A stretch of DNA of 64,000 nt from the IMG/VR virus record IMGVR_UViG_3300009180_002437. One strand, written 5' to 3'. Position numbers and translations under genes: made by a program. Shown here one piece after another: positions 3,910-63,762 of the stretch. This DNA is from a virus. Its lineage: Duplodnaviria > Heunggongvirae > Uroviricota > Caudoviricetes. Below the pieces are notes generated by a model. That model was not told the DNA's origin, searched no databases, and was given only the letters and a program-made list of their open reading frames with translations. How positions within the stretch are numbered: position 1 is the stretch's first letter; every line of letters begins with the position of its first letter.

Positions 3910-3979
3910 TGAATACTAAATTCAGATGAAATCTGCATGATGTGGATCAGTACGCTGTATCGGTATAAATACTATTATC

Positions 3980-5920
3980 ATGAAAATACACGAAATTACC
4001 TTGTTATTCGAGGGTTATCCCCAAGCTCAAGATGCTTTTATTCAGCAATCGGGCGGTGATACTGCATCAGTACAAAAAACTATCGCCGACTTTCGTCAGT
4101 TGGTGAATAGAAATCAGATCAAAGACACAAACCAAAAGAATATCGATTGGTGGGCCAAACAGGGCTGGGATAAGTTCAATGCTTTTGTCAATCAGGCATC
4201 AGCAATACCCAGCAAGACGCAAATGACCAGAAAGAAAATACCTGGGCAAAGCATCAACTTGGTGGATGATGCTCAGTGGCTCATCGTTGTGCCACTGGAC
4301 AAGGAAGCCAGCTGTTTTCATGGAAGAAACAGCAGTTGGTGTACTACTAAAGTTCATCAGGAACATTTTGAAAATTACTTCTACAACAATGAAGTAACCT
4401 TGATATATTGCTTTAATAAAGCCACTGGTGGTATGTGGGCTATAGCGGCACATAAAAGAACAGATCGCATGGAAATGTTTACACAACAAGATGCATCAAT
4501 ATCGGCAGAACAATTTACACAACTGACTGGTCTAGATCCTCAACAGTTACGATCCATGGCTCTGGGTGACGTTCATCAACCTGCAGTACAGGCATCCAGA
4601 GATCAATGGAAGGAATCTGTAGCATTGACAAAACAATTGATGGCTACAATGCCACGCGGCACCAGATCGGCAGAAATAGAAAAGCAATTGGAGTATAATA
4701 AAGTAGGGGGATTATGCTTTGATTATATCTACCGATTTCAGTCAATTGAATCCAAAGACTTTCCGTTGTCGATACAGATATCGGCAATTAACAAAAATGG
4801 TGCCGTATTGGACCGAATCAATAATCCTGTTCAAGCTGTGCAACTGGCAGCAGTCAAGAAGGAAAATCTTGGGTTGAAAACCATCATTGCTCATGGAGCC
4901 AAGCCCAATGAAGCCGTACAACTGGCAGCAGTCACACAACACGGTCCTGCTATAGGTTTCCTGAAAGCCGCCGGCATCACTCCCAGCGAGGCTGTTCAAA
5001 TGGCAGCAGTAAATCAGAGCGGTACTGCTATACATTCCATCATATCGAATGGTATCGTGCCCAGTGATGAGGTGCAAATAGCAGCAGTAACTCAGAATCC
5101 AGAAGCAATAAAATTCATAATCACAGATTTGGGCACTGAGCCAAGTCATGCTGTGCAAATGGCAGCAGTCAAACGTTACGGCGGAACGTTTCGAATGTTG
5201 ATGAATCATGGAATTGTTCCCAGCAAAGACGTTCAAGAAGAAGCAATAGCCAGGGACGGCCTTAGTATACAATATTTGAAAAATCCCAATGAGAGATTAC
5301 AATTGGCCGCAGTTAGCAATGTTGGCAGGGCTATATTGTTTATTCTCCGGGCCGGCATCAGACCAAGTCACGCGGTGCAATTGGCAGCAGTGACGCAGGA
5401 TGGGCTGGCACTCGATTATATCTTACAGGATAAAATTAAACCAGAGTATGATGTGCTATTAGCAGCAGTGACCCAGGATGGCCGTGCCATTGAATATATC
5501 CAAAATCCCGACGAGCGATTACAGATAGCCGCAGCCAAGAGAAATAGTGGTGCATTAAAACTTTTAATGAAAGCTGGAATAACCCCCAGTTATGCCGTAC
5601 AGATGGCGTCAGTTACTCATGATCCCTGGTCTATAAAATATTTGAAAAATCCCGATGAGAGATTACAATTGGCCGCAGTCAACAATCATGGTGGTGCATT
5701 ACATGAAATAATCAAATCTGGAATTCTTCCCAGCGAGGCGGTACAATTGGCCGCGGTCAAATCAAGCCCCATAGTATTACGTATGATCCAAAATCCCAGC
5801 ATGGCGGTTCGCGACGCTGCACACATAGCAGCACAAGAGAAAAAAGCTCAAGAGGATGCTGCTATAAACGCTGCCAGAGCTGCCAGAGCTGCTCAAGGTG
5901 CCCAAGCAGCACCGGCCTAA
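3980..5920 (+). CDS. repeat protein with about 13 tandem 26-27-aa repeats (DUF4116-like, AVQLAAVTQDG.AL.YI)
   Basis: A 646-aa ORF. Its C-terminal two thirds are periodic: VQLAAV[TK]Q.G.AI.[FY]I...GI.PS. No Shine-Dalgarno site was recognised. Confidence 0.55.
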   Translation: MKIHEITLLFEGYPQAQDAFIQQSGGDTASVQKTIADFRQLVNRNQIKDTNQKNIDWWAKQGWDKFNAFVNQASAIPSKTQMTRKKIPGQSINLVDDAQWLIVVPLDKEASCFHGRNSSWCTTKVHQEHFENYFYNNEVTLIYCFNKATGGMWAIAAHKRTDRMEMFTQQDASISAEQFTQLTGLDPQQLRSMALGDVHQPAVQASRDQWKESVALTKQLMATMPRGTRSAEIEKQLEYNKVGGLCFDYIYRFQSIESKDFPLSIQISAINKNGAVLDRINNPVQAVQLAAVKKENLGLKTIIAHGAKPNEAVQLAAVTQHGPAIGFLKAAGITPSEAVQMAAVNQSGTAIHSIISNGIVPSDEVQIAAVTQNPEAIKFIITDLGTEPSHAVQMAAVKRYGGTFRMLMNHGIVPSKDVQEEAIARDGLSIQYLKNPNERLQLAAVSNVGRAILFILRAGIRPSHAVQLAAVTQDGLALDYILQDKIKPEYDVLLAAVTQDGRAIEYIQNPDERLQIAAAKRNSGALKLLMKAGITPSYAVQMASVTHDPWSIKYLKNPDERLQLAAVNNHGGALHEIIKSGILPSEAVQLAAVKSSPIVLRMIQNPSMAVRDAAHIAAQEKKAQEDAAINAARAARAAQGAQAAPA

Positions 5921-8393: not shown

Positions 8394-8422
8394 TTGACAA
8401 TTAAATCCGCTGTTACTATAAT
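8394..8422 (+). promoter_or_regulatory. perfect consensus sigma70 promoter TTGACA-17-TATAAT; the downstream ATG sits at the predicted +1 (leaderless)
   Basis: TTGACA at 8394-8399 and TATAAT at 8417-8422. The ATG at 8429 lies only 6 nt after the -10 element. Confidence 0.6.
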
Positions 8423-8428
8423 AGCTTT

Positions 8429-8821
8429 ATGACAATGCATCTACTCCCCCCGCTGTATTCGACCACAGGCAAAAAGAAAGGTCGCTATAAATTCGCATCT
8501 GCTGAGCAAAAACAGCAAGCTGAAGCTAATAAGGAAGAGTGGCAGCGTAAACTAAATGAATTTAATCGACTATCACCCTCTGTAAGGACGTCAAAGAGCC
8601 CTATGCCCACACTAAGCAAATCGCTACCCCGTATTCCCACCAGCCGTCAAACAGCTCACATTGAGTCCCTAGTAACCACCTGGGGTCCTTGCCTTAAGGT
8701 AGAAGATATGCAGTACACTGGCAACAAAATTAAGGGCATTGGCACAATGCATAAATCAAATGCGGTGCCGGTATTCAGTGACGAAGAAGCTGTTGAAATT
8801 TCACAAATGCGGAGAGGCTAA
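8429..8821 (+). CDS. hypothetical basic protein (possibly translated from a leaderless mRNA)
   Basis: A 130-aa ORF with no Shine-Dalgarno site. Its start codon abuts the promoter -10 element. Confidence 0.4.
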   Translation: MTMHLLPPLYSTTGKKKGRYKFASAEQKQQAEANKEEWQRKLNEFNRLSPSVRTSKSPMPTLSKSLPRIPTSRQTAHIESLVTTWGPCLKVEDMQYTGNKIKGIGTMHKSNAVPVFSDEEAVEISQMRRG

Positions 8822-8822
8822 G

Positions 8823-9272
8823 ATGAGCGTAACAGATAATACAACCGATTTATTTACAACTTTATTTGATTTTGATTCGACCAGTGAGCTTTTGAAGACT
8901 AAACCAACTGCACCTCGCCCAACATGTGTAAATCATGGATGTAGTAAGCCAGTTGCATCGGATGGTAAGCGTTGGCGTATTCATTGCGGACATTGCCAAG
9001 GTGCAAGTTACGGAAGAAACCCTCACGCAGCCGGAGTTACCCCATTAAAAACAGGTATTTGTTCAAATATTGATGGACATTTAGGATTTCCCTGTGTGAT
9101 AGACTGGAAAAAAGTTCCAGAATTTGCTAAAGGCATGACTGAAATTGACCATATTGACGGCAATCATTTGAATAATTCTATTAGCAACCTTAAAGAACTA
9201 TGTCCCATTTGTCATAAACTTAAAGGACAACGAGCCGGCGATTTTAAACGCGGTAGATACACACATAAATAA
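8823..9272 (+). CDS. HNH endonuclease
   Basis: HNH motif HIDGNHLNNSISNLKELCPICH plus upstream Cys/His pairs. Shine-Dalgarno site GGAGAGG. Confidence 0.65.
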   Translation: MSVTDNTTDLFTTLFDFDSTSELLKTKPTAPRPTCVNHGCSKPVASDGKRWRIHCGHCQGASYGRNPHAAGVTPLKTGICSNIDGHLGFPCVIDWKKVPEFAKGMTEIDHIDGNHLNNSISNLKELCPICHKLKGQRAGDFKRGRYTHK

Positions 9273-9301
9273 CTGCTCATAACAGGAGATAATAAAACAA
9301 A

Positions 9302-9523
9302 TTGAGTAAATCAGATGATGTAATTAAAATGGAGGGTGTAATCACCGAAGTATTACGAAACACGAATTATCGTGTTAAAATTGAAAACATTGAAAATCCC
9401 ATTCTCGCTACACTAAGCGGGAGAATACGCCAAAATAATATCAAAGTACTTACAGGCGACAGAGTACAGTTAGATATATCACCCTACGACCTATCTCGTG
9501 GTAGAATTACACGTAGGCTATGA
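9302..9523 (+). CDS. infA: translation initiation factor IF-1 homolog (S1-like OB fold)
   Basis: The 73-aa product aligns along its length with bacterial IF-1 (GVITEVLRNTNYRVKIENIENPILATLSGRIRQNNIKVLTGDRVQLDISPYDLSRGRITRR). It uses a TTG start, with AGGAG upstream. Confidence 0.7.
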   Translation: MSKSDDVIKMEGVITEVLRNTNYRVKIENIENPILATLSGRIRQNNIKVLTGDRVQLDISPYDLSRGRITRRL

Positions 9524-10083
9524 TTTTAATAAATACCTACATGAGAGATTTATTAAACTTAGTGGAAGCAGCAACCGTTTCAGCTAAACTGGAAACTACC
9601 CCACTACCCTACGCACATAAAGATCTGGCTCCCATAATGAGCGCAGACACAATAGAATACCACTACGAGCACCTGGCTAAAGGCTACGCTAAAAAGTACA
9701 ATGCCGGCGAAGGTGATGCCGATTTCAACCGTGCTGGCAGCTTCTTACACAACAAATTCTTTCCCCAATTGCAAGCACCAAAAGGTGCCAACCGTCCCAA
9801 GGGTGCGGTGCTAGAACTCATTGAAGCTAACTTCAAAACTTACGAAGATTTCAAGGTAGCGTTCAAAGAAGCTGCCATGAAGATTCAGGGATCGGGTTGG
9901 GTTTATCTCAGCACAGGTGGAACTATTAAAACCATACGAAATCATCAGGTTCGTACCGATATTTGTGTACTGGTTGACTGGTGGGAACATTCATGGTCGA
10001 CGGATTACAAGTGGGATAAAGAAAAGTATCTAGATAATATCTGGAAAATTATCAACTGGAACGTATGTTCGGAGAGAATATGA
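9520..10083 (+). CDS. sodB: Fe/Mn superoxide dismutase-like protein
   Basis: [21 protein letters not shown] aligns with the SodB N-terminus, the GSGWVYL block is present, and D-WWEH matches the Asp/His metal-ligand motif D-xWEHAYY. His residues sit at the ligand positions. Confidence 0.65.
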
Positions 10084-10406
10084 TCACACTAACTGAAAAC
10101 GCCGCGATTAAAATTAAAGATTTATTAGCAGAAGAAAACAATCCCAAGCTAAAACTTCGTGTATTCGTTCAGGGCGGCGGATGCAGTGGAATGCAGACAG
10201 GCTTTACCATGGATGAAGAACAAGCTGACGATGACTGGGAGGTCGAAGTCAATGGCGTTCATTTGTTAGTAGATAGTATGAGTAGTAATTATTTAAAAGG
10301 TTCAACCGTGGATTATCGCGATGATATCAATGGATCTGCCTTTGTTATCACTGGCATGGAAGCCACAACGACATGTGGCTGTGGTAGTAGTTTTTCACCA
10401 TATTAA
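10080..10406 (+). CDS. erpA: A-type Fe-S cluster carrier (IscA/ErpA/HesB family)
   Basis: [24 protein letters not shown] ... C-terminal TCGCGSSF, matching ErpA end to end. ATGA overlap with the SOD-like gene. Confidence 0.75.
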
Positions 10407-10463: not shown

Positions 10464-11885
10464 ATGTCGCAACAAATTATTAATGTAGGTACGGCGCCCA
10501 ACGATGGTTTGGGAACTCCAATACGTACTGCTTTTCAGTACACAAATAATAACTTCACGCAACTGTTTTCGTTGCCGAATCCTACACCCCCAACTACCCT
10601 AGTGGGCAAAGCGGGCGATGTCCCGGGTATGTATGCATACAGCGCGGCATATTTTTACTACTGTTTTGGAACTTATGATGGTTCCACTGTTATTTGGGCA
10701 CAGATTGCCCAGGGTAATACCTCAATCTCAAATATCGTTAATGGCACTAGTAATGTAAGAATCGGTAGTGCCAATGCCAATGTAACCGTGGGAGTAAACG
10801 GTACAGCAAATATTGCAGTTTTCAGTAATACTGGAGTATCAGTAACTGGTAATATTAGAACCTCTGGACAAATAACAGCCACTGGTAATGTATATGGTAA
10901 TGCCATTGTCGGCACTTACTTGTACGGAGATGGCAGCAATATTAGTAACATATCAGGTGGCGGGAATTACAGTAATACCAATGCAGCAGCATATCTACAG
11001 GTACTAACTTCAAATGTATCAACAACTGGCAACATAACCGGAAGTTATATTTTAGGCAATGGTAGAAATTTAACTGGATTACCGTTAACCTATGGCAATG
11101 CTAACGTTGCTAACTTTTTACCAGTATTTACTGGTAACATATTATCAAGTAATATGACCGCTACTGGAAACGTGCATGCCGGAAATATTAAAACGGTGGG
11201 AATAGTTTCAGCAACAGGAAACATCACTACTGACGGATATTTTATTGGCAATTTCGTTGGGAACATATCAGGTAACTTAGTAGTGCCTGGATCGAATACT
11301 CAAGTACTTTATAATGATAATGGAAATGCTGGAGCAAGCGCCGGGTTAATATTTAACTCTGCATCAAACATTTTATCAGTAACGGGAAATGTGTATGGCA
11401 ATTATTTTCTTGGTAACGGTAGTCAATTAACAGGGTTACCAGTTACGTATGGCAATGCCAATGTGGCTGCTTATCTACCAACTTATACCGGCAACATAAC
11501 AGCAGGTAATATCAGTACCACTGGAAATATAACAGCTAGCTATATTTTAGGTAATGGTAGTCAATTAACTGGCATCGCCGCCACCGGCATAAATGCAAAC
11601 GCACTAACTGGATCTACCTTATCAAGCAATGTTACTACCAGCAGCTTGACTTCTGTTGGTACTTTGGCAAATTTAAGTGTAACCGGCAATGTAGTGGCAT
11701 CTGGGGTAGTGACTTCTACCGGCACATTTAGATTGCCTAGTTATACTACCGCACAAATTGCCAACATATCAGCGGTAGAAGGAGATATGGTTTATAATTC
11801 AACTGTACAACAAATACAAGCATATCAAGCAAATGCCACAGGTAACGTAACATGGGTAAGTTTAAGTGTGTCTACTTACCAGTAA
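10464..11885 (+). CDS. tail fibre protein built of Phage_fiber_2-like repeats
   Basis: Many copies of a repeat about 30 aa long: ...TGN[IV]...YILGNGSQLTGLP.TYGNANVA.YLP.YTGNI. Confidence 0.6.
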   Translation: MSQQIINVGTAPNDGLGTPIRTAFQYTNNNFTQLFSLPNPTPPTTLVGKAGDVPGMYAYSAAYFYYCFGTYDGSTVIWAQIAQGNTSISNIVNGTSNVRIGSANANVTVGVNGTANIAVFSNTGVSVTGNIRTSGQITATGNVYGNAIVGTYLYGDGSNISNISGGGNYSNTNAAAYLQVLTSNVSTTGNITGSYILGNGRNLTGLPLTYGNANVANFLPVFTGNILSSNMTATGNVHAGNIKTVGIVSATGNITTDGYFIGNFVGNISGNLVVPGSNTQVLYNDNGNAGASAGLIFNSASNILSVTGNVYGNYFLGNGSQLTGLPVTYGNANVAAYLPTYTGNITAGNISTTGNITASYILGNGSQLTGIAATGINANALTGSTLSSNVTTSSLTSVGTLANLSVTGNVVASGVVTSTGTFRLPSYTTAQIANISAVEGDMVYNSTVQQIQAYQANATGNVTWVSLSVSTYQ

Positions 11886-15586: not shown

Positions 15587-15596
15587 TCAAAACTGT

Positions 15597-15624
15597 TGAT
15601 TTACTACCGTCATTCCTGTACAAT
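15597..15624 (+). promoter_or_regulatory. sigma70-type promoter TTGATT-16-TACAAT; the ATG is 7 nt downstream (leaderless)
   Basis: TTGATT at 15597-15602, TACAAT at 15619-15624, ATG at 15632. Confidence 0.5.
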
Positions 15625-15631
15625 TTAATGT

Positions 15632-15856
15632 ATGGAACATCCACTTATCCCCAGCATCGATAACCTTACCACTGAAGAACTATTGGATAAGGTTAACGAA
15701 CTAAACAAAAAACTTGGCATAGCGCATCGTTTGGGTAATTACCATTTATGCACCCAAATTCGCATGGCCATAGAAACTTACCAAAACAAATATACAGACA
15801 AACTACGTGCTAGTCAGTCTGGTAAAGACACCGATGGAATCATTGATATATCATGA
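15632..15856 (+). CDS. hypothetical protein
   Basis: A 74-aa ORF with no Shine-Dalgarno site, abutting the promoter. Confidence 0.35.
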   Translation: MEHPLIPSIDNLTTEELLDKVNELNKKLGIAHRLGNYHLCTQIRMAIETYQNKYTDKLRASQSGKDTDGIIDIS

Positions 15857-20446: not shown

Positions 20447-20631
20447 TAAAGCCTCATGTAGAAGTAAGTTACTGCTATCAGCACCTTGCTGACCCAAGTA
20501 TTTACATCAGTGTATTTTTATATTCTATGAGTAGTAAAAAGGTGTTATAAGTTGATAAGTATTAGGCTATACTGTAAATTCTTACATTCCCAATATTATG
20601 CCATATTCGCAACTACACTAAATACTTGACT

Positions 20632-21246
20632 ATGGCAAACAAAGCATTCGATTCAGAAATATTCAAAGATCACCAAGATTATTGGCAAGTGGCCCAAAAC
20701 ATCAAGGACATATACCTATCCGAGGGTACGCTATTGACCCTGTTAGACTTCGAGCGTGTATTAGATTCCATGGATCTATACGCATTTAAAAACTGGGATA
20801 TCGGTGAGCTGGTACAAGGCCCAACAGTGGGAAAATATCACGTTAGTTGTATATTTCTCTGGCCCGAAAACTTAATGCCCGATCCACGTGGTGGACGTAG
20901 ATTATTACCGTTTGATTGTACTGTAAAGTACAAGAAAACTGACATGAAGATTCCCATTAAAATTGATGATCCTAGCGATTATCGCCCGGGAACAAAAATA
21001 GCAAGAATCATTGAGAAAAAGGTATGGTTGGTGGAAATCACCATGCCCAAAACTTTGATGAGCGATATACGTACAGGCAGTATTGATCTTGAAGAACAGG
21101 AACTTGATCTACAAGAATTAGATAACGCTTATTCGGTTGATGAACGTGGTACTGCACCTAGCGCACCGCCTGGAGCAGCACCGGCCCCAGCGGCACCTGC
21201 TGCTGCCGCAGCAGCCGCACCGGCCGCACCCCCCACTGGCGCATAA
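20632..21246 (+). CDS. hypothetical protein with a C-terminal Ala/Pro low-complexity tail
   Basis: The frame opens at 20626; the first ATG is at 20632. The C-terminus is APSAPPGAAPAPAAPAAAAAAAPAAPP. Confidence 0.4.
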   Translation: MANKAFDSEIFKDHQDYWQVAQNIKDIYLSEGTLLTLLDFERVLDSMDLYAFKNWDIGELVQGPTVGKYHVSCIFLWPENLMPDPRGGRRLLPFDCTVKYKKTDMKIPIKIDDPSDYRPGTKIARIIEKKVWLVEITMPKTLMSDIRTGSIDLEEQELDLQELDNAYSVDERGTAPSAPPGAAPAPAAPAAAAAAAPAAPPTGA

Positions 21247-24341: not shown

Positions 24342-24370
24342 TTGACATAAATATCGTTTTACTATACAAT
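24342..24370 (+). promoter_or_regulatory. sigma70-type promoter TTGACA-17-TACAAT
   Basis: TTGACA at 24342-24347 and TACAAT at 24365-24370. Confidence 0.5.
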
Positions 24371-24402
24371 ACACCCATGACTATCTTATACCCTGTTACC
24401 AT

Positions 24403-25200
24403 ATGAGTAATCCTTACGATACACTGGGCGTGCCTAAAAACGCCACTACTGACGAAATTAAAAAGGCTTACCGCAAGTTGGCTAGTCAACATCATCCTGA
24501 CAAAGGTGGCGATACCAAAAAATTCCAAGACATACAAACAGCTTACGAGACACTGGGTGACGAACAAAAACGTGCTCAGTATGATAGACCACAGCCGCAA
24601 GGTGTGCATTTTGAATTTGGTGGACCGGGAGGATTCGATCTCGGTAGTATATTCAATATGTTCGGGGCGAAGGGATTTCAAAATCATCCTCCTGGTCAGC
24701 CACCAAGACAACAGCACACACGCATGAGCTTGTGGATTACCTTATCAGACATTGCATCGGGCGGAAAACGTACAGTAGCCATTGGCGGTAGCCACGGTAG
24801 TATGAACATTGAAATCGAAATCCCCATGGGTATCAATGATGGAGACAATGTTCAGTATGGAGGAATTGGTCCGGGAAATACGGATCTAATTATTAACTTC
24901 CGTATTCATCCTCACCCCAAATGGCAACGTAATGGATTGACACTAATTGCCGAACAAACGGTATCCATCTGGGACTGTTTAGTAGGCGGTGAAACAATTG
25001 TAAAAGATTTACTGAATAATCAATATACTATTAGTGTTCCCCCATTAACTCAACCAGGGAGTTTATTAAGATTAAAAGACAAAGGGTTGCGTAACAGGCA
25101 AGGTCAGTCCGGAGATCTACTGATTAGGATTCAGGCTAAAATGCCAGAATCTATCAGCCAAGAGCTATCGGAACTGATTAAAGAGCAGCAGGAAAAATAG
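24403..25200 (+). CDS. DnaJ-like co-chaperone (J domain plus DnaJ C-terminal-like domain, no zinc finger)
   Basis: J-domain DTLGVPKNATTDEIKKAYRKLASQHHPDKGG with the HPD motif, and a C-terminal beta-rich domain. Confidence 0.65.
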   Translation: MSNPYDTLGVPKNATTDEIKKAYRKLASQHHPDKGGDTKKFQDIQTAYETLGDEQKRAQYDRPQPQGVHFEFGGPGGFDLGSIFNMFGAKGFQNHPPGQPPRQQHTRMSLWITLSDIASGGKRTVAIGGSHGSMNIEIEIPMGINDGDNVQYGGIGPGNTDLIINFRIHPHPKWQRNGLTLIAEQTVSIWDCLVGGETIVKDLLNNQYTISVPPLTQPGSLLRLKDKGLRNRQGQSGDLLIRIQAKMPESISQELSELIKEQQEK

Positions 25201-27543: not shown

Positions 27544-28216
27544 TCACTTTGAACACAGGAGTACTGTGCTCAAAGATCGATTATTTTATGATAAATTCAA
27601 ATACTGTATCTCCTTCGTAATGGATGAGATTACAATATTAATTAAACCCGTTACTCATTATGATATTGATCGCTTGATTGATATTCGTAATGAGTATCGA
27701 AGACAGTATTCAAGGAATAGCCGACCATACAAAGTTCCGGATATTGCCTTGGATATACGACAACAGATTCACGAAATAGCCGATATATTGATCAAGACAA
27801 CGGAAGATTACAAATTCAATACATCATATAGAACAATGTGGTTGTATACCAACAGCGAAGATCTTATTAACAAGTTGGATAAATTAGAATTTATTAGTAA
27901 CATAAAAGTAAGCGAAGCTATTGTAAACCGACCCAGAGGTACTGTTAAACTAAAGAATCCCGAACACACGCATCGCAGCTATTTTCGTTTTCTTAGGCCC
28001 ACTGTTGATGATCGCAGGAGAATTGTTAATTTCCTAGACACTCACTCCTCCCATATTAAGCCCAGTCCGGCATTGTCACGATATCTGCTCAACGACGGCT
28101 TTCCTTTTATTCTGGAATATTTTTTTATAGATTATACAGGTGAGAGTTGGGTAACTGTTTTGACCTTGTTGTATCCGGGATTAATTAGGAAGACCCTACC
28201 AATTATCCCAGCATAA
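27521..28216 (+). CDS. hypothetical protein
   Basis: The frame opens at 27491 (TTG); the ATG at 27521 is preceded by AGGA. It overlaps the clpA 3' end. Confidence 0.35.
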   Translation: MANLPPFNHFEHRSTVLKDRLFYDKFKYCISFVMDEITILIKPVTHYDIDRLIDIRNEYRRQYSRNSRPYKVPDIALDIRQQIHEIADILIKTTEDYKFNTSYRTMWLYTNSEDLINKLDKLEFISNIKVSEAIVNRPRGTVKLKNPEHTHRSYFRFLRPTVDDRRRIVNFLDTHSSHIKPSPALSRYLLNDGFPFILEYFFIDYTGESWVTVLTLLYPGLIRKTLPIIPA

Positions 28217-28226
28217 ATAATAGACT

Positions 28227-28595
28227 ATGACAACCTTCACAAATCAACAATTACTGCCGCCCACTACATTTGGTACACCATCGGGAAATTACGATGGTTC
28301 AAGTTCCAGTTTCACGGGTAACGCTATTCCGGCAGCAAACTATTACGGTGGGCAAGGGTCTGCGCAAACAAACATTATACAAACAACCGGATTTCAGGGT
28401 GTCATTACTATTGAAGCATCACTAAATGACCTAACTCAACAGGCACTTTGGTTTGAAGTTGCCGCTTATGGCAATGCCAGCACACCCACTACCGACACGC
28501 AGGCACTCAATGTCATCGGTAACTTTGTTTGGATACGAGCCCATGTTACAGATTTTACTGCTGGCACGGTAAATTCAGCTAACGTGGTTTATTAA
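28227..28595 (+). CDS. hypothetical protein
   Basis: A 122-aa ORF. Confidence 0.35.
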   Translation: MTTFTNQQLLPPTTFGTPSGNYDGSSSSFTGNAIPAANYYGGQGSAQTNIIQTTGFQGVITIEASLNDLTQQALWFEVAAYGNASTPTTDTQALNVIGNFVWIRAHVTDFTAGTVNSANVVY

Positions 28596-30405: not shown

Positions 30406-30481
30406 AACTACTCGCATAGTTTTATAAAGAAACCGCTATAGTTGATTCTGTAGCGGTTTCTGCTTTTTGGTAAATATTACT

Positions 30482-32941
30482 ATGAATATTGAACAACTTG
30501 AATCTTATAACTTAGCAGATGCTGTTAAGTTTCATGACCGTCTGAACCCATTACTATGGGATAGTCGTGAGAATCTGCACCCTGAAATACACAGTAAGTT
30601 GTTGAAAATTGCTGATGATTTTCGTGATTCGCTGGGCGTAAATGATTTAGAGCTTAAAGATATCACTATATCAGGTAGTAATGCTGCTTATTCCTATACT
30701 CCACATTCAGACATAGATTTACATTTAATTGTTGATTTATCCGGGGTAGATCACCCAGAAATCTACAGAGAATTATTTGATGCTAAAAAAGCCATTTACA
30801 ACAATGAGCATACAATTACAATCAAGGGAATTCCAGTGGAATTGTATGTGCAGGATGCTGCTCAAGATCATCATAGTCAGGGCATTTATAGTATAATAAA
30901 CAATGACTGGATACAGATCCCACGTAGAGTACAAGCTGATATCGACGATATGAGTGTGCGTAGCAAATACGAAGATTTAAGTAACCGTATTGACAAAGTT
31001 GTCAAAACTGAAAATCTTACTAAGATGGATGAACTTGCAGCAAAAATTAAAAAAATGCGACAAGAGGGATTAGCGGAACACGGTGAGTTTGGTCCCGAGA
31101 ATTTAGTATTTAAAATGTTACGCAATCAGGGTCACATTGAAGAATTACGAACAGCACGCCATGAAGCAAAAAGTAAAGAACTAAGTCTAAAAGAACGTGT
31201 CGGCAAACCTAAAACAATATATGGATACGGTCGAGACTTTGTGGATGAGGTTGCACTAACACCCGGTGGTGTGTCAGATCATACTAAAATGTTTGTGGAA
31301 AAAGAAGAAGCTCCGGTTAACTCACAACAGGAAATTATTGAAGATTTCATTGATTTTTGTTCGGCACAGTTATCATTAGCAAAAGAAATCAACTTACGAA
31401 TTCGACGTGACCCCGAGTGGTCTGTACGCAACAAGACATTTGGTAGATATGACCAACAGACCAATGAGTTAAATGTTGGGGTCAGTGGTCGTCATACCAT
31501 GGACATACTGCGTACCGTAGCACATGAGCTGGTGCATCAACGACAAAATGAAACTCAGGAAATGCCGCCGGATGCTGGAGCGGATGGTAGCGAATATGAA
31601 AATGAAGCCAATGCGCGGGCCGCTGTATTGATGCGTAAGTATGGTAAGCTACATCCTGAATTATTCGTACCATCTGAATTGAATGAAGAATTAGAAAAGC
31701 CAGTTACTGCTCATGGTTATATGTACAATCGACAAGATCAGCGTATAGCATGGACCAAAGAATTTGCTAGTGAGGCGGCGGCCAAGGAATGGGCACGCCG
31801 TCGTAATGCTACTTTATTAAGTATTGTTTCCAAACAATTGGAAGCAGTGGGTAATTTCACTGCCGACCCCCAACAGCAGGCTAGGATGTATCTGCAATAC
31901 CATACTGGTACGTTTGATCCAGCAACAATGCCCAAATTTTTGGCAATTAAACCTGGCGTTTCTTTATCCGTACAGCCTCCACCTCCTGGATCTTCTGGCT
32001 CGCATGAAGAAACATTGGCATATTTGTCAGCAGCTAATAAAAAGTTGCCCAAAGAGCTACAAGTTGGGTGGGATGAATTAAAGAATATCGGCGGCGTTAG
32101 TAACACAATTAAATTGACCGGTGAACCACATCCTGACAAATACAATCCAGCCACTGATCCTACCGTTGCCAATCCAGTTGCTACACCGTTCAAGGTACAG
32201 GAAAATGGGTTAGGTGGCTTGGCGGAAGGCTTAAATGAAGCATCCGGCTACATTCCAACCGAAGCAGAAAGCGCAAAACAAATAAACTGGATTAAGCCCA
32301 ACTTTGATTTTGAATGGCACGAAGTTGAAGAACAATCTAAGATGAAGCAAGTACCGCCCGAAGTAAGAAAATATTATCAAAAACATTTTCCCAACAAAGC
32401 CGCATGGCTTGCCGCAGTTCAAAATGGTAGAGCAGTTGTTGTGCCGCCTGATCATTCGTATGAGATTAGAAATGCCCCCCATGATAAGAAATCACTACTG
32501 CAAGTCTTGGCTCCTACTTCTCATGAAGGCGCTATTGGACCTGCCAAACAGAAAAGGGTCAACGCACTATTTTCTAAAGGTGGTCCGATAGAAATGCCTA
32601 TCATACTAAAAACAAGTAAAGGTTTGTGGTTAATTGGCGGTAAGACCAGACTAGGAACCGCAAATTACATCAAAGGAATTCCTGCTAAAGTATGGATGAT
32701 TGACGGTGACCAAGATGTGACGAAAGGTTTAAAAGAATCATCCGGTTATATTCCAACCGCAGCAGAAGCCAATGATCCACGTTTTGAGATGGCATTGACA
32801 GTTGATGTCAGACCAGGCGCATTAGGCAAGGCTGCTAACAGTTTCCTATTGAATACAGATAGGCAGGGTCATCCTCAAGAACTACGTCCTGATGGATTGG
32901 TCAATCGTATGATGGTGGAATATTTAGAGTTTAAACAATGA
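30482..32941 (+). CDS. large multidomain protein: Pol-beta-type nucleotidyltransferase motif plus HExxH metallopeptidase motif plus duplicated SSGYIPT module
   Basis: ISGSNAAYSYTPHSDIDLHLIV (GS...SDIDL). VAHELVHQRQ (HExxH). GLNEASGYIPTEAESA and LKESSGYIPTAAEAND are repeated. Confidence 0.45.
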   Translation: MNIEQLESYNLADAVKFHDRLNPLLWDSRENLHPEIHSKLLKIADDFRDSLGVNDLELKDITISGSNAAYSYTPHSDIDLHLIVDLSGVDHPEIYRELFDAKKAIYNNEHTITIKGIPVELYVQDAAQDHHSQGIYSIINNDWIQIPRRVQADIDDMSVRSKYEDLSNRIDKVVKTENLTKMDELAAKIKKMRQEGLAEHGEFGPENLVFKMLRNQGHIEELRTARHEAKSKELSLKERVGKPKTIYGYGRDFVDEVALTPGGVSDHTKMFVEKEEAPVNSQQEIIEDFIDFCSAQLSLAKEINLRIRRDPEWSVRNKTFGRYDQQTNELNVGVSGRHTMDILRTVAHELVHQRQNETQEMPPDAGADGSEYENEANARAAVLMRKYGKLHPELFVPSELNEELEKPVTAHGYMYNRQDQRIAWTKEFASEAAAKEWARRRNATLLSIVSKQLEAVGNFTADPQQQARMYLQYHTGTFDPATMPKFLAIKPGVSLSVQPPPPGSSGSHEETLAYLSAANKKLPKELQVGWDELKNIGGVSNTIKLTGEPHPDKYNPATDPTVANPVATPFKVQENGLGGLAEGLNEASGYIPTEAESAKQINWIKPNFDFEWHEVEEQSKMKQVPPEVRKYYQKHFPNKAAWLAAVQNGRAVVVPPDHSYEIRNAPHDKKSLLQVLAPTSHEGAIGPAKQKRVNALFSKGGPIEMPIILKTSKGLWLIGGKTRLGTANYIKGIPAKVWMIDGDQDVTKGLKESSGYIPTAAEANDPRFEMALTVDVRPGALGKAANSFLLNTDRQGHPQELRPDGLVNRMMVEYLEFKQ

Positions 32942-33627: not shown

Positions 33628-33642
33628 TCCGCTAAATACAGT

Positions 33643-33930
33643 ATGGCCAAACAATTTGTACGCATACTGAGTAATATTGATTGCGAATGGGAGGGAATAA
33701 GCCCCATTTACCGTTTGTACATTAATAACGAGTTGTTTACCGAACGTACTTGGGTCTGGACTGATAGTGCCCTGGAAGAAAACCTACAGGTTGAAGCTGA
33801 ACCAGGTGTATATGAGGTAAGATATGAGTTGCTATCACCTAATTTAGCCCAGCTAAAGATAGGCAGTTTATCAGTAGATTTTGGACCAGCAGAAATACTG
33901 GACGATGCGCATTTTAGGATATTAGAATGA
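33643..33930 (+). CDS. hypothetical protein
   Basis: A 95-aa ORF. Confidence 0.3.
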   Translation: MAKQFVRILSNIDCEWEGISPIYRLYINNELFTERTWVWTDSALEENLQVEAEPGVYEVRYELLSPNLAQLKIGSLSVDFGPAEILDDAHFRILE

Positions 33931-48151: not shown

Positions 48152-49203
48152 CAGTTTTTTTAGTTGATCTAGAAGCAGTCTCAACCCGGTATACCGGGCA
48201 GTGGAAGACTCATCTTCCACTGTTACTTGAAAAGGAAGGACATAATGTCCATATTATTGACGGACCTACTGATATCCCTAATGCTACAACTCCTGGTGCT
48301 TTTCTTAATTTTGGGGGCACCAACATTTACAAAGCTGCACAAGTTGAAGCTATGGGTAGACTCTTCACCCAGGGTGAAGTTAAGCCTGGCGATCATTTTA
48401 TCTTTACAGACGCTTGGCATCCTGGTATTATTAACCTTAGATACATGAGTGAGTTACTGAAAATTCCAGTAACTACACACGGTCTATGGCATGCAGGTAG
48501 CTATGATCCTGAAGATTTTCTAGGTCGGTTAATCGGCGATAAACCCTGGGTTAGGCATGCGGAAAAAAGTTTCTTTTTTGCGTTTGATCATAACTATTTT
48601 GCCACTGATTTTCATATCAAGATGTTTGCCAAGAACTTATTTGATGCAGTGGACAATGGTGCAAACCCTTACGTAACACGAACTGGGTGGCCCATGGAAT
48701 ATATGGATGAACTACTTACCCCATACAAGAATCTAAAGAAGCGTAATCTTGTATTATTTCCACATCGCATTGCCCAGGAAAAACAAGTGGAAATATTTCG
48801 GGATCTAGCATCTAAATTACCACAGTATGAATTCATTGTGTGTCAGGATCAAGAACTAACTAAACATGAATACCATACGTTATTAGGTGAAGCAAAAGTA
48901 GTATTCAGTGCTAACCTACAGGAAACACTGGGTATCAGTTGTTACGAGGGTGCAGTTGTTAATGCTATCCCCATGGTACCTGATAGACTTAGTTATAGAG
49001 AAATGTATTATGATGAATTTAGATATGATTCTACATTTACTCAAAATTATAAATTTTATGAAAAAAGCAGACCGTATCTAGCTAAAAAACTCATGTCATA
49101 CATGAGCAACTATGAATCATTGCTGCCTTTACTGGAACAACAAGCAGCCAAATTGTCCAAGGATTTCTTTTCGGCCGGTAATTTACTATTAAATATAAGA
49201 TGA
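48148..49203 (+). CDS. GT4-like glycosyltransferase
   Basis: C-terminal ETLGISCYEGAVVNAIPMV (E-x7-E-like GT-B motif). TTG at 48148 overlaps the upstream TGA, with GGGAAAA upstream. Confidence 0.45.
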   Translation: MTVFLVDLEAVSTRYTGQWKTHLPLLLEKEGHNVHIIDGPTDIPNATTPGAFLNFGGTNIYKAAQVEAMGRLFTQGEVKPGDHFIFTDAWHPGIINLRYMSELLKIPVTTHGLWHAGSYDPEDFLGRLIGDKPWVRHAEKSFFFAFDHNYFATDFHIKMFAKNLFDAVDNGANPYVTRTGWPMEYMDELLTPYKNLKKRNLVLFPHRIAQEKQVEIFRDLASKLPQYEFIVCQDQELTKHEYHTLLGEAKVVFSANLQETLGISCYEGAVVNAIPMVPDRLSYREMYYDEFRYDSTFTQNYKFYEKSRPYLAKKLMSYMSNYESLLPLLEQQAAKLSKDFFSAGNLLLNIR

Positions 49204-49910: not shown

Positions 49911-50961
49911 ATATTTTTCCTGCTGGGCTAAGTGGAATACTATCAACACACTTGAGTACTGCTGGTTTGCAATGTTTACCAAGGCTGATCAAAAAGTTCT
50001 TGATAGTATCTTCATCGCATGTACCTACATATAGACACTTAACATGATCTGTACCAAATACCACACATTCCTGCATACCCGGAATGTTCTGTAGTAACTG
50101 TCGTTCGATACTCACAGGATTAATTTTAGAACCCTTGACGTTAATTTGATCACGACTACGACCCAGTATACGATAGTAACCCATTTCATCTTGGTCAGCT
50201 AGGTCTCCTGTATCGTACCAATCACCATGACAAATATTAAAACCCTTGATCATCAAATGACCATTTTCAATTTTAGCTTCTATGCCATCAGGCAATCCTA
50301 CTGTGCCAACTCGTTGTGGGCCGGCAAGTGGATTAGTGAAACAGTGACTCATTGCTTCTGTCATACCAAACGCTTCTACTATAGGAACATTAAACTTTGC
50401 GCTTAATTTGTGATATAAATCGTGTGACATAGGAGCACTGGCAGAACGTATAAATCTTAAATTGTCAAAATTTAATTCAGCAATAACTCTTAGTACATCA
50501 GGAATGGCAGTTATAAAAGTTGGCTTAGTAGAGGGAAAGGTTTTAATGTCTTTCATAGTAACGTAGGTAGTTTCGCATCCTGCTAATTGCGCCGCCCAGT
50601 AAAAACCCTGCCCATGCGCATGCCATAAGCTCATGATGCTGGTATATCTATCGTTAGCTGTCAAGTTGTATGATCTAACAATAGTAGCAGCCATGTTGTT
50701 TAGATGTGCTTGTGTAAAGCTACAAAACTTACTATCTCCTGTGGTGCCTGATGTATACCAAAGTACTCTTTCGTTAGGATAGTCATTACCATTTCTAACT
50801 TTTTCTTGATCTCGAGTGATGTATAAACTCCAGTCGGAATTTTCCAATAGGTATCGGTTCCTAGCCTCAGGGGCATTAGGATTTATGATCATTATCGAAT
50901 GATCTTTTAACTGGGGAATAAAATCTTGTGGATTGTCCACACATAAGACGGCACGTTTCAT
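49882..50961 (-). CDS. adenylate-forming enzyme (acyl/aryl-AMP ligase, DltA-sized)
   Basis: AMP-binding motif WYTSGTTGDSKF, plus YDTGDLA and RSRDQINVKGSKI. The likely start is MKRAVLCVD at 50961; the ORF-track start 50997 lies upstream. Confidence 0.65.
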   Translation of the reverse strand: MKRAVLCVDNPQDFIPQLKDHSIMIINPNAPEARNRYLLENSDWSLYITRDQEKVRNGNDYPNERVLWYTSGTTGDSKFCSFTQAHLNNMAATIVRSYNLTANDRYTSIMSLWHAHGQGFYWAAQLAGCETTYVTMKDIKTFPSTKPTFITAIPDVLRVIAELNFDNLRFIRSASAPMSHDLYHKLSAKFNVPIVEAFGMTEAMSHCFTNPLAGPQRVGTVGLPDGIEAKIENGHLMIKGFNICHGDWYDTGDLADQDEMGYYRILGRSRDQINVKGSKINPVSIERQLLQNIPGMQECVVFGTDHVKCLYVGTCDEDTIKNFLISLGKHCKPAVLKCVDSIPLSPAGKISRALLDSCH

Positions 50962-50968
50962 GCAGATA

Positions 50969-50997
50969 TTTATATAGCCATAATGGTAGCGTATCAA
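50969..50997 (-). promoter_or_regulatory. sigma70-type promoter on the minus strand (TTGATA-17-TATAAA)
   Basis: Read as the reverse complement of 50969-50997. It diverges from the plus-strand promoter. Confidence 0.45.
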
Positions 50998-52195: not shown

Positions 52196-52423
52196 ATGGC
52201 AACTAAAACGTTTTTACCAACAACTGAAATCAGCGAAATCAAACACAAACTAGAAAAAGTAAACGAAAACTTTACTGTCTACATGTATGACAACGGATTT
52301 ATGTTTGAAATTGCAGGACGAAACCGTGCTGGCGATTATAAAACTGTTAAAATTCTTTGTCAAAATATGGATCAATTGGTATCCTTGGTACAGCAAGCTG
52401 CTGATATGGAAAAAGATGATTGA
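52196..52423 (+). CDS. hypothetical protein
   Basis: A 75-aa ORF with Shine-Dalgarno site aggag. Confidence 0.4.
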   Translation: MATKTFLPTTEISEIKHKLEKVNENFTVYMYDNGFMFEIAGRNRAGDYKTVKILCQNMDQLVSLVQQAADMEKDD

Positions 52424-60906: not shown

Positions 60907-61269
60907 ATGAATTTTACAATTGACGAATCAAAACCCTTTGATGTAACTATACGTGAAGTCATCAGTAGTTTGGAAAATCCAGAGAATCCTACTGCTGATG
61001 ACTTAGTTAGAATTTTAAAAGGTTACCAACCTATGACCAGTGTCAGAAATGATGACAGTCCTGAGTTTAAAGCACTACGAACCCAACTGGAATCGGAAGG
61101 TTATATCAATTGTGAGCGTGGCTGGTGGAACGGCGACCGTGTACTAAAATCATTTACTTTAAATGGGATTAAATTTGAAGTAGGTAATAAGTTCTTCTCC
61201 GGTGCAGCGATGCATAACCACTTAGAATGGGAAAGAAAATATGAAAACCAGAGAACAAATCATAACTAG
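60907..61269 (+). CDS. hypothetical protein
   Basis: The ATG at 60907 follows the upstream TAA. Confidence 0.35.
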   Translation: MNFTIDESKPFDVTIREVISSLENPENPTADDLVRILKGYQPMTSVRNDDSPEFKALRTQLESEGYINCERGWWNGDRVLKSFTLNGIKFEVGNKFFSGAAMHNHLEWERKYENQRTNHN

Positions 61270-61441
61270 TATGTGTTATACTTATAGACATGACTATGGG
61301 CTCGAAAAACCTACTGGAGATAACTTTGCTAGTAAGTTATCATCAGGCACCACACAGGCAGAGCGCGAATCACTATGGCGTCAAATGGCGCAGATATTTG
61401 ATAACGATATATTACCACATATGGAATTTAAAAATGAGTAA
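61241..61441 (+). CDS. hypothetical protein
   Basis: A 66-aa ORF. Confidence 0.3.
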   Translation: MKTREQIITSMCYTYRHDYGLEKPTGDNFASKLSSGTTQAERESLWRQMAQIFDNDILPHMEFKNE

Positions 61442-62276
61442 ATTAAAAGTAGCAGAGTTGTTTTATAGTATTCAAGGTGAAGGCAGATATATGGGAGTAC
61501 CCTCAATCTTCCTACGTACATTCGGCTGTAATTTTACCTGCGATGGCTTTGGTATGCCACGCGGAGAGAAAAGTCAAGAAAGACATAATATTGTAGTAGC
61601 TAATTACCAAACATATAATGAGCTGCCATTAGTGAGTTCTGGCTGTGACTCATATGCCTCCTGGATGCCGGAATTTAAGAATCTAAGTCCATTAATGGAA
61701 ACTGATGGCATCGTAGATCGCATTATGGAGATCTTACCGTATAAACAATGGGCAATGGAACATCTAGTCATTACAGGTGGCGAGCCATTGTTAGGTTGGC
61801 AACGTGCTTATCCAAACTTGCTTAACCATGATAAGATGAAAGACTTGCGTGAAATTACTTTTGAAACTAATGGCACTCAGCCGTTAACGCCAGAGTTCAA
61901 ACATTTTCTAGGTGAATGGACTGCTGAACATTGGCATAGAGAAGTTACATTCTCGATCAGTGCTAAACTTAGTAATTCAGGCGAGTTACGTGAAGATGCT
62001 ATTAAACCTGAAGTTGTACTGGAATATCAAGACACAGGCTATGCTTACCTAAAGTTTGTAGTGGCTACTGAAGAAGATGTCGAGGAAGCCCTGGCAGTTA
62101 CACAGATTTATCAAACAGCAGGATTTAAAGGTCCAGTTTATTTGATGCCAGTCGGCGGGGTTGAAAGTGTATATGCACTTAACAATCGTCGTGTAGCAGA
62201 ACTAGCCATGGCGAACGGATTACGTTACAGTGATCGTTTACAAGTTCCACTCTTTAAAAATGAGTGGGGAACTTAA
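61434..62276 (+). CDS. queE: 7-carboxy-7-deazaguanine synthase (radical SAM)
   Basis: MSKLKVAELFYSIQGEGRYMGVPSIFLRTFGCNFTCDGFG matches the QueE N-terminus and its CxxxCxxC-type cluster motif. Confidence 0.7.
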   Translation: MSKLKVAELFYSIQGEGRYMGVPSIFLRTFGCNFTCDGFGMPRGEKSQERHNIVVANYQTYNELPLVSSGCDSYASWMPEFKNLSPLMETDGIVDRIMEILPYKQWAMEHLVITGGEPLLGWQRAYPNLLNHDKMKDLREITFETNGTQPLTPEFKHFLGEWTAEHWHREVTFSISAKLSNSGELREDAIKPEVVLEYQDTGYAYLKFVVATEEDVEEALAVTQIYQTAGFKGPVYLMPVGGVESVYALNNRRVAELAMANGLRYSDRLQVPLFKNEWGT

Positions 62277-62726: not shown

Positions 62727-62755
62727 TTGACTTTTAATACTTGGACTGCTATACT
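62727..62755 (+). promoter_or_regulatory. sigma70 promoter TTGACT-17-TATACT; the ATG is 5 nt downstream (leaderless)
   Basis: TTGACT at 62727-62732, TATACT at 62750-62755, ATG at 62761. Confidence 0.5.
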
Positions 62756-62760
62756 AACAT

Positions 62761-63762
62761 ATGAAATATATTCTTATCGACACAGCTAACCTTTTCTTTC
62801 GTGCTAGGCATGGTGCTTTCCGTGCGGGCGACACTTGGGAAAAGGTAGGATTCGCCCTACACGTCACACTAATGGCTGCTAATAAAATGGCACGCCGCTT
62901 TGAAGCTGACCATGTAGTTTTTGCCCTAGAGGGGCGTAGCTGGCGCAAGGACTTTTATAAGCCCTATAAAGCTAACCGTGCAGTGGCTAAACAAGCACTC
63001 ACAGAGCAGGAATCCGACGAGGATAAAATGTTCTGGGAAACGTATGATGCATTAACTAAATACTTGGGCGAGAAGACCAATTGTAGTGTTATACGATGTC
63101 CCACCGCAGAAGGCGATGATATTATAGCTCGCTGGATAGCATTACACCCTGAAGATGAACATGTCATTATCAGTAGTGATACCGACTTCGTTCAGTTAGT
63201 AGCACCCAATGTCAAACAATATAACGGTATAACCGACGAACTAATCACCCTTGAAGGAACCTTTAATGATAAAGGAAAAATTGTTATCGATAAGAAAACT
63301 AAAGAACCTAAGCCGCCAGCTAAACCGCAGTGGCTACTCTTCGAAAAGTGTATGCGCGGCGATTCAACGGATAACATCTTCTCAGCATACCCGGGAGTAC
63401 GAGTTAATGGTACTAAGAAGAAGATTGGACTTACGGAAGCATTCGAGGACCGTGGCAAAAAAGGATACGCTTGGAACAACATGATGTTACAACGTTGGAC
63501 TGATCCAGATGGTGCAGAACATCGTGTGCTGGATGACTACAATCGTAATGTAACATTAGTTGACTTGACTGCACAACCCGAAGATGTTAAGCTGACTATT
63601 GATACCAGTATCAAGGAACAGGTTAGTCACAAGGATGTGGGTCAAGTAGGAGTACGTTTCTTACAGTTTTGTGGGAAATACGAATTAGTTAAATGTAGTG
63701 AAAATGCCGAAGCATTTGGCAGTTGGATGAATAAAACTTATAGTGGAATATTAAATGCTTAA
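62761..63762 (+). CDS. 5'-3' exonuclease / flap endonuclease (T4 RNase H-like, PIN/53EXO)
   Basis: N-terminal ILIDTANLFFR and the metal site SSDTDFVQLV. Confidence 0.7.
   Translation: MKYILIDTANLFFRARHGAFRAGDTWEKVGFALHVTLMAANKMARRFEADHVVFALEGRSWRKDFYKPYKANRAVAKQALTEQESDEDKMFWETYDALTKYLGEKTNCSVIRCPTAEGDDIIARWIALHPEDEHVIISSDTDFVQLVAPNVKQYNGITDELITLEGTFNDKGKIVIDKKTKEPKPPAKPQWLLFEKCMRGDSTDNIFSAYPGVRVNGTKKKIGLTEAFEDRGKKGYAWNNMMLQRWTDPDGAEHRVLDDYNRNVTLVDLTAQPEDVKLTIDTSIKEQVSHKDVGQVGVRFLQFCGKYELVKCSENAEAFGSWMNKTYSGILNA

Follow-up and report, generated by a model that had tools for sequence, protein, structure and literature searches.

In the present study, we analyzed a 64,000-nucleotide (nt) stretch of phage DNA (hereafter the window; one strand of IMG/VR record IMGVR_UViG_3300009180_002437, Caudoviricetes), focusing on promoters whose -10 hexamer lies only a few nucleotides upstream of a start codon. 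Our analyses suggest that three genes, encoding a basic protein of 130 amino acids (aa), a 74-aa protein and a 5'-3' exonuclease, together with a fourth promoter unit at position 24342, are likely expressed as leaderless mRNAs. Leaderless expression of the three genes had been proposed in an initial annotation of this DNA, and it gains support from the conservation of the promoters and their spacing while the intervening bases diverge, as well as from a marked preference for ATG among the start codons, a pyrimidine at position -1 and a weak structure of the predicted 5' ends.

Results

The three promoters that the initial annotation had placed 5-7 nt ahead of an ATG (sites 1, 2 and 3; Table 1) proved exact to the base. 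The gap between the -10 hexamer and the ATG comprises 6 nt at site 1 (ATG 8429), 7 nt at site 2 (ATG 15632) and 5 nt at site 3 (ATG 62761), and at each site both hexamers of a sigma-70-type promoter are present, 17 bp apart. Such gaps are physically too short to accommodate a Shine-Dalgarno (SD) motif, and the lack of this element at all three sites, claimed earlier, was borne out by the calculated pairing of the upstream sequence with the anti-SD, which equals 0 kcal/mol at sites 1 and 2 and at best -3.0 kcal/mol at site 3; the latter pairing is located inside the promoter spacer and would therefore stay outside the transcript. The promoter-adjoining ATG is the first start codon of each open reading frame (ORF; 130, 74 and 333 aa), no SD-led alternative in-frame start was found downstream at any of the three genes, and the protein alignments of the relatives start at residue 1 for all three proteins, with conserved N-termini (MKY(I/V)LIDTAN, MEHPLIPS and M-x-M-H-L). 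The start codons of the three genes are correctly assigned.

The composite pattern TTGAY-N18-TAYAMT-N5-7-ATG matches the window four times, as compared with 0.08 matches expected, and four or more matches were found in none of 100 shuffled sequences; all four sigma-70-type cases in the window start with ATG. Loose promoter-like matches (9 of 12 positions) are as frequent as in shuffled sequence (63 vs. 56.7 and 67 vs. 65.9), therefore only the top-scoring sites and the composite pattern are informative. The three sites of the initial annotation are real, but as a set they are an undercount, given the fourth promoter at 24342 and a second class of promoter-like elements built on the hexamer TAAATA. 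Similarly, the statement that most other genes possess clear AGGAG-type ribosome-binding sites was overstated, since it applies to about half of the genes on the + strand: 32 of these 78 genes are preceded by a strong SD and 8 by a moderate one, and approximately 17 of the others either overlap their upstream neighbor or lie directly next to it. In total, about 12 of the approximately 85 window genes (~14%) are leaderless candidates.

For the pooled analyses, we combined the window with 183 related loci, which were numbered L001 onwards and fetched around the very genes under study; this set covers 1.07 Mb and contains 472 distinct strong promoters, for which the distance was taken from the -10 hexamer to an ATG with which an ORF of 60 or more codons begins (N6 denotes a gap of 6 nt). 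The distribution of the distances is bimodal, with a sharp peak at N6 (51 cases) and N5 (9 cases) and a broad second peak at N28-39. At N5-6, the start codon is ATG in 60 cases and GTG or TTG in 4, while TTG is common among leadered starts. Leaderless mRNAs start with AUG; when a leader is missing, GUG and UUG serve poorly. A pyrimidine directly precedes the promoter-adjoining ATG in 54 of 57 cases; transcription starts usually prefer a pyrimidine at -1 and a purine at +1. For the first 35 nt, the mean folding energy was -1.4 kcal/mol for the leaderless genes vs. -3.7 kcal/mol for the leadered ones and -4.1 kcal/mol for random ATGs, in a sample that is inflated by family redundancy. The layout with an ATG adjoining a sigma-70 promoter recurs in the flanks, in nine or more gene families unrelated to one another, and a promoter-abutting ATG occurs in 53 protein families overall (17 of the sigma-70 type and 38 of the TAAATA type). 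The relatives are mostly either leaderless or equipped with a leader of ~30 nt, usually with an SD, and intermediate lengths are rare; such a choice between no leader and a full leader fits function rather than accident.

The three sites differ in their history. In most relatives of the 130-aa gene, TTGACA-N17-TATAAT stands ahead of a TTTGGAG-containing leader of ~28-31 nt, and the start codon is often TTG; even the relatives with 72-73% identity are leadered. The leaderless layout of this gene was found in the window, in L296 (89% identical), which keeps the site 1 promoter despite substitutions in the spacer, in L136, where it is independent, and in L140 and L152. Judging from this distribution, the leaderless arrangement at site 1 is recent and recurrent. 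The relatives of the 74-aa protein (58-63% identity; the protein itself yielded neither a Pfam nor a PHROG match) keep the -35 hexamer, the -10 hexamer and a six-base gap to the ATG in six of six cases, while the spacer has diverged. The third gene, described earlier as an RNase H-like nuclease, indeed encodes a 5'-3' exonuclease/flap endonuclease, with the PF02739 domain starting at residue 2. Its locus is leaderless in 26 of 79 cases, in the order TTGAC, variable spacer, TGcTATAcT, six variable nucleotides and ATG: TTGAC, TG, TATAMT and ATG are fixed in these 26 loci, and the bases of the spacer and those between the -10 element and the ATG vary. The N5 gap is found in the window nuclease gene and its three closest relatives, which are independent contigs, and N6 in the other leaderless relatives. 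The remaining 53 of the 79 loci exhibit a different extended -10 element, TGTTACAAT, followed by a leader of ~30 nt, mostly with a TAAGG-type SD. The arrangements at sites 2 and 3 are thus old and conserved ones. As a separate observation, the alternative, conserved promoter-like motif TGTTACAATA, an extended -10 element with no clear -35, lies 25-35 nt upstream of the nuclease gene in L008, L011, L016, L019 and ~50 other loci, and drives the leadered versions of this gene, most of which have an SD.

At the fourth promoter, the ATG opens a mini-ORF of nine codons, whose TGA (24404-24406) overlaps the ATG (24403-24405) of a DnaJ-like chaperone gene that lacks an SD, as is expected for termination-reinitiation. 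Because the stop codon of the mini-ORF overlaps the SD-less start, the DnaJ-like gene is probably translated by termination on the mini-ORF and subsequent re-initiation, and the mini-ORF apparently serves to load ribosomes. A mini-ORF of 8-10 codons, likewise leaderless and with the stop codon at most 5 nt from the DnaJ start, is kept in L169-L172. In six other loci (L168 and L178-L182) the DnaJ-like gene is itself directly leaderless (TATAAT, 5-6 nt, ATG), and some of its relatives show gaps of N8-N9.

A second type of promoter appears to follow the same design. In phage T4, the late consensus TATAAATA occupies positions -13 to -6 (PMC1524935), therefore TAAATA followed by 5 nt sets the A of the ATG at +1; moreover, for the related Rak2-like jumbo phage CBB, a similar motif (ATAAATA) has been suggested to be the late promoter (PMC5259590). 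Seven of the eight window matches to TAAATA-N4-7-ATG are gene starts, and the full 8-mer TATAAATA occurs at two window sites only. In the pooled loci, the distance from TAAATA to the ATG has its mode at 5 nt (58 unique contexts), and no comparable peak at 5 nt was observed for the control hexamers of equal composition, once those amounting to shifted versions of promoter motifs are set aside. An SD precedes 75% of the genes that start 15-22 nt past TAAATA vs. 6% of those that start at 4-7 nt. At the 819-aa gene, the succession of hairpin, T-run, TAAATA, N5 and ATG is kept in nine of nine relatives (59-93% identity; N4 in L286). The TATAAATA-N5-ATG arrangement of the AMP-binding enzyme gene is kept in relatives with 93-99% identity, in which the sequence further upstream is unrelated. 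T4-type late promoters depend on the phage sigma factor gp55, together with gp33 and the clamp; a gp55-like sigma factor did not turn up in family-library scans of part of the window proteins, none of which was a search aimed at gp55. We consider the TAAATA class a well-supported extension of the predicted leaderless set, although less secure than the sigma-70 cases.

Some individual TAAATA elements deserve separate mention. The hexamer is also found 15-30 nt ahead of the SD-led genes at 10464, 14684, 29479 and 54647. The Clp-like ATPase gene (25264 in the window) has an SD and a sigma-70-type promoter ahead of it in the window as well as in close relatives, and starts 5 nt past TAAATA in the distant L176 and L179-L182; therefore, one gene can switch between both modes. 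For the superoxide dismutase gene, ATG 9541 may be the start instead of ATG 9520, which overlaps the IF-1 stop codon. For the start at 49200, coupling to the upstream gene is an alternative explanation.

Table 1. Promoters and genes of the window discussed in the text.
Feature	Position	Strand	Remarks
646-aa protein gene, ATG 3980	3964-3982	+	Full TATAAATA, 8-nt gap; leader would be very short
Site 1 promoter	TTGACA 8394-8399, 17-bp spacer, TATAAT 8417-8422	+	12/12 consensus match
130-aa basic protein gene (phrog_27048)	8429-8821	+	ATG 6 nt past -10, A at canonical +1, no SD
Translation initiation factor IF-1 gene, 73 aa	9302-9523	+	PF01176, E=1.5e-18; TTG start, AACAGGAGA SD
Fe/Mn superoxide dismutase gene, possible true start ATG 9541	9530-9543	+	TAAATA, 5-nt gap
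Site 2 promoter	15596-15624 (TTGATT 15596-15601, 17-bp spacer, TACAAT 15619-15624)	+	9/12 match
74-aa protein gene	15632-15856	+	ATG 7 nt past -10 (6 nt in all six relatives); no SD
Virion structural protein gene (phrog_12928), ATG 20632	20619-20634	+	TAAATA, 7 nt, no SD
Fourth promoter	From 24342 (TTGACA, 17 bp, TACAAT, 6 nt, ATG 24377)	+	Composite-pattern match 24342-24379
Mini-ORF, 9 codons (MTILYPVTI)	24342-24406 (promoter and ORF), ATG 24377	+	TGA 24404-24406 overlaps DnaJ ATG
DnaJ-like chaperone gene, 265 aa	24403-25200	+	J domain from residue 3; no SD
122-aa gene, ATG 28227	28214-28229	+	TAAATA, 7 nt, no SD
819-aa protein gene, ATG 30482	30430-30484	+	Terminator-like hairpin and T-run, TAAATA 30471-30476, 5 nt
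95-aa gene, ATG 33643	33633-33645	+	TAAATA, 4 nt, no SD
236-aa gene, ATG 49200	49190-49202	+	TAAATA, 4 nt; ATG overlaps upstream stop
AMP-binding enzyme gene, ATG 50961	50959-50974	-	Full TATAAATA (50974-50967), 5 nt
Site 3 promoter	62727-62755 (TTGACT 62727-62732, 17-bp spacer, TGcTATACT, hexamer 62750-62755)	+	10/12 match, extended -10 TG
5'-3' exonuclease/flap endonuclease gene (T4 RNase H family), 333 aa	62761-63762	+	PF02739 from residue 2; ATG 5 nt past -10

Several further promoter-like sequences were encountered in the window. We rejected a candidate at 63755 (TTGGCA, N17, TATAGT, N10, ATG), as its "promoter" is located inside the conserved C-terminal coding sequence of the nuclease and the relatives show a GGAG SD, and a match at 27299, a false positive whose ATG (27334) is an internal methionine codon of the Clp-like ATPase. 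A candidate at 61290 (TGtTATACT, N7, ATG), which would serve a QueE-like gene (61290-62276), is doubtful: its -10 element is not conserved in L002 and L003, the start of the gene is ambiguous, a small ORF (61241-61441) overlaps its 5' end, and residue 48 is the first one covered by the PHROG match. The small ORF overlapping the QueE-like gene starts, in L002 and L003, 6 nt past TGcTACAAT, which is a further leaderless layout. On the - strand, a perfect 12/12 sigma-70 promoter (52363-52335) lies antisense within a small SD-led gene (52196-52423). The near-identical promoter-like strings at 5276-5303 and 5642-5669, in the 646-aa gene, are internal protein repeats (DUF4116 region) and not promoters.

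The site 1 promoter heads an operon composed of the 130-aa gene, an HNH endonuclease gene, and the genes for IF-1, superoxide dismutase and an Fe-S protein. The phage-encoded IF-1, which had been noticed earlier, is a genuine gene (Table 1), and the 130-aa product is basic, as had been stated, with an isoelectric point of 9.9. The pairing of the 130-aa gene with a downstream IF-1 gene was observed in 26 of 80 related loci and also in L296-L299. In the window (8429-10406) and in L296-L299 there is a conserved string of genes encoding a cell-wall hydrolase, the 130-aa protein, a variable insert, IF-1, Fe/Mn superoxide dismutase and an Fe-S assembly protein; the insert is the HNH endonuclease gene (8823-9272) in the window and a different ORF of 142-229 aa in the relatives, and its position between the 130-aa gene and IF-1 looks like an insertion spot for mobile genes. 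No Pfam domain was found in the 130-aa protein, which belongs to a metagenomic family of more than 7,800 homologues (E<=1e-5) with 35 invariant residues in an alignment of 46 sequences. Its structure prediction is of low confidence (predicted local distance difference test, 66.5; predicted template modelling score, 0.27) and mostly disordered, the low-confidence model consisting of one long helix, a C-terminal hairpin and a helix.

Hundreds of contigs related to the window are present in IMG/VR, several of them 340-365 kb in length, while no near-identical DNA match was found among cultured phages, the closest of which match at the protein level only (51% identity for the nuclease of the Pseudomonas jumbo phage PA5oct and 45-48% for the Rak2/CBB/GAP32-like nucleases). 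Because there is no close cultured DNA match, and because of the hundreds of IMG/VR contigs and the many homologues of the 130-aa protein, the window can be assigned to an abundant, uncultivated lineage of jumbo phages. An attempt to deduce the host from IF-1 failed, since the best bacterial matches do not exceed 59% and are scattered across many phyla. The window contains no tRNA genes, and a scan against Rfam gave no family match anywhere in it.

Discussion

We propose that the host RNA polymerase, carrying a sigma-70-type factor, binds the near-consensus -35 and -10 hexamers and would start transcription ~7 nt past the -10, on or beside the A of the ATG, so that the transcript would begin with 5'-AUG and lack an SD. 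A ribosome, probably a 70S particle with initiator tRNA, would bind this 5'-terminal AUG directly, by analogy with lambda cI. In the 24342 unit, the ribosome would load at the 5'-terminal AUG of the mini-ORF and then re-initiate at DnaJ. The TAAATA elements appear to use the same leaderless design; if so, leaderless expression would be a general habit of the lineage, served by early-type as well as late-type promoters.

Several observations weigh against this interpretation. The phage is known from metagenome contigs alone, and the pooled statistics are inflated by family redundancy, as the loci are centered on the target genes. Leaderless relatives of the 130-aa gene are exceptional, and the first 50 kb of PA5oct, the part covered by the scan, contain no promoter with an ATG at N5-7. 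The number of TAAATA-N4-7-ATG matches in the window is at the level of chance (8 vs. 7.7 expected), and the support for this pattern comes from conservation and from the seven matches that are gene starts. Counted from the -10, the A occupies the sixth position at site 3 and the eighth at site 2, the usual position being the seventh, therefore the true start could be 1-2 nt off. Finally, a terminator precedes none of the three promoters, hence read-through transcripts in which these ATGs are internal probably exist as well.

The offset of the A bears on one of the rival explanations, namely that transcription starts 1-3 nt away from the A, giving a very short leader or, at site 3, a start inside the ATG, or that the promoter serves mainly the downstream genes. 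The differing gaps at the three sites (6, 7 and 5 nt) would be in keeping with such near-leaderless transcripts, and so would the contrast between the window and its relatives, with N5 in the nuclease subclade of the window vs. N6, N7 at the 74-aa gene vs. N6, and N8-N9 at some DnaJ genes. However, the pooled peak is sharp at N6, where an A at +1 is expected, the bases at -1 and +1 are as a rule a pyrimidine and a purine, respectively, and three independent contigs of the nuclease subclade to which the window belongs retain N5; moreover, leaders of up to 3 nt count as leaderless in working definitions, e.g., under 10 nt (PMC8244752). We regard this explanation as distinctly unlikely. Even less probable, in our opinion, is SD-independent internal initiation on read-through transcripts (e.g., by S1 capture of an AU-rich region), with the promoter-like and TAAATA sequences being translation signals or incidental. 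The missing terminators and the chance-level TAAATA count would suit it, as would the short distances to the upstream genes, which end 37-58 nt away, and the location of several TAAATA cases in gene junctions of 10-17 nt. A translation signal, however, needs neither a conserved TTGAC 17 bp upstream nor an extended -10 TG, and both motifs also occur 15-40 nt ahead of SD-led genes, as promoters behave; nor do suitable control hexamers give a comparable peak. In addition, a conserved terminator hairpin stands right before TAAATA-N5-ATG at the 819-aa gene, so that transcription has to begin anew at this point. A juxtaposition by chance or a wrongly assigned start codon might be invoked because 9/12 promoter-like matches are no commoner than in shuffled sequences and because, of the apparent cases, that at 63755 did not withstand inspection and that at 61290 is doubtful, yet the composite pattern greatly exceeds its expectation (4 vs. 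0.08), the layout is conserved across the relatives, and so are the N-termini and domain boundaries, which leaves this option scarcely credible.

The initial annotation had suggested that the phage-encoded IF-1 possibly favors the leaderless route, and the presence of IF-1 in the operon headed by the leaderless 130-aa gene raises the question of whether the phage IF-1, possibly with the 130-aa protein, specifically boosts leaderless or re-initiation translation of phage over host messages. The recurrence of the pairing in related loci would fit such a role; moreover, leaderless translation is reported to be enhanced in vitro by both IF1 and IF2, and initiation by 70S scanning to be strongly enhanced by IF1 (reviewed in PMC9031893), and phiYS40 infection shifts the IF2/IF3 balance (PMC3594737). 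However, canonical initiation requires IF1 as well, which means that no specificity follows, and both IF-1 and leaderless layouts are widespread in the sampled relatives, so their co-occurrence is uninformative. The mostly disordered, low-confidence model of the 130-aa protein offers no help to this idea, and Rak2-like phages are reported to encode IF-3 instead (PMC5259590), a factor that inhibits leaderless translation in E. coli systems (PMC9031893). Taken together, we find a specific boost by IF-1 a reasonable idea but an unlikely one. Equally speculative is a two-track translation, in which at least a tenth of the genes would be leaderless, via host-type and T4-like late promoters, and a conserved early module of the 130-aa protein and IF-1 would retune host ribosomes to 5'-AUG and re-initiation; were this doubtful scheme true, phage messages would stay translated under conditions that impair SD-dependent initiation or let it be out-competed.

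Phages that otherwise use SD sites are believed to have few leaderless mRNAs. If our interpretation is correct, a very large environmental family of giant phages uses the leaderless route routinely, and gene callers requiring an SD would misplace starts in such genomes, for which the distance from promoter to ATG would be a cheap annotation aid for starts and promoters alike. The pairing of IF-1 with a small basic protein would be a testable candidate for phage control of initiation, and the findings would gain importance were the IF-1 module shown to direct initiation. Furthermore, the mini-ORF before DnaJ would provide a compact natural example of ribosome loading at a 5'-terminal AUG followed by re-initiation.

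Among known systems, the closest parallel to sites 1-3 is lambda cI transcribed from PRM, an established case in which a distance of ~6 nt separates a sigma-70 -10 element from the ATG, whose A is the first base of the transcript; this mRNA lacks an SD, and its translation requires the 5'-terminal AUG (PMC9031893). In the window, the corresponding start is one that we infer. In lambda, however, the layout concerns a single regulatory gene, while the window would have at least four sigma-70-type units and approximately eight TAAATA units in 64 kb, including genes for enzymes and a chaperone. The mini-ORF resembles stop/start coupling (ATGA) and 70S-scanning in that its TGA overlaps the SD-less ATG of DnaJ, but it differs from ordinary coupling, as the upstream ORF would be leaderless and comprises only nine codons and the same gene is directly leaderless in other lineages. 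As in T4 and CBB late promoters, a TAAATA core precedes many window genes, including that of a virion protein, and in half of the cases it lies 15-30 nt before an SD-led start; here, it is very often found exactly 5 nt before an SD-less ATG. In a limited search of the literature on CBB, PA5oct and T4-like phages we found no mention of TAAATA 5 nt before an SD-less ATG, nor, within this limited search, did we encounter leaderless genes described for the group related to PA5oct and Rak2 or downstream of T4-type late promoters.

PA5oct itself is, similarly to the presumed source of the window, a giant virulent phage with host-type promoters (TTGAC/TATAATA), and its nuclease is 51% identical, but its nuclease gene is coupled to the upstream gene. 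In the two jumbo phages whose transcription starts we checked, phiKZ (early infection) and AR9, no leaderless transcript was found: differential RNA sequencing of phiKZ revealed no leaderless transcript among the start sites mapped in early infection (PMC8244752), and the untranslated regions of AR9 measure 26-491 nt (PMC5312081). As a general strategy, promoter-adjacent starts are described for the large virulent Thermus phages phiYS40 and Lalka27a, most of whose transcripts are reported to be leaderless, with a proposed link to the balance of initiation factors (PMC3594737; bioRxiv 10.64898/2026.04.20.719267); in the phylum of the Thermus host, ORFs adjacent to a -10 element are already common (PMC12340547). 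The window differs from phiYS40 in that about half of its genes have an AGGAG-type SD and the leaderless candidates make up ~14% and not most of the genes, so that the predominance of leaderless middle and late transcripts reported for phiYS40 has no counterpart here; moreover, the phage of the window encodes an IF-1 of its own, while phiYS40 is reported to alter the levels of IF2 and IF3. Hence, the layout itself is already known from lambda cI and phiYS40, and what is unusual here is its frequent use.

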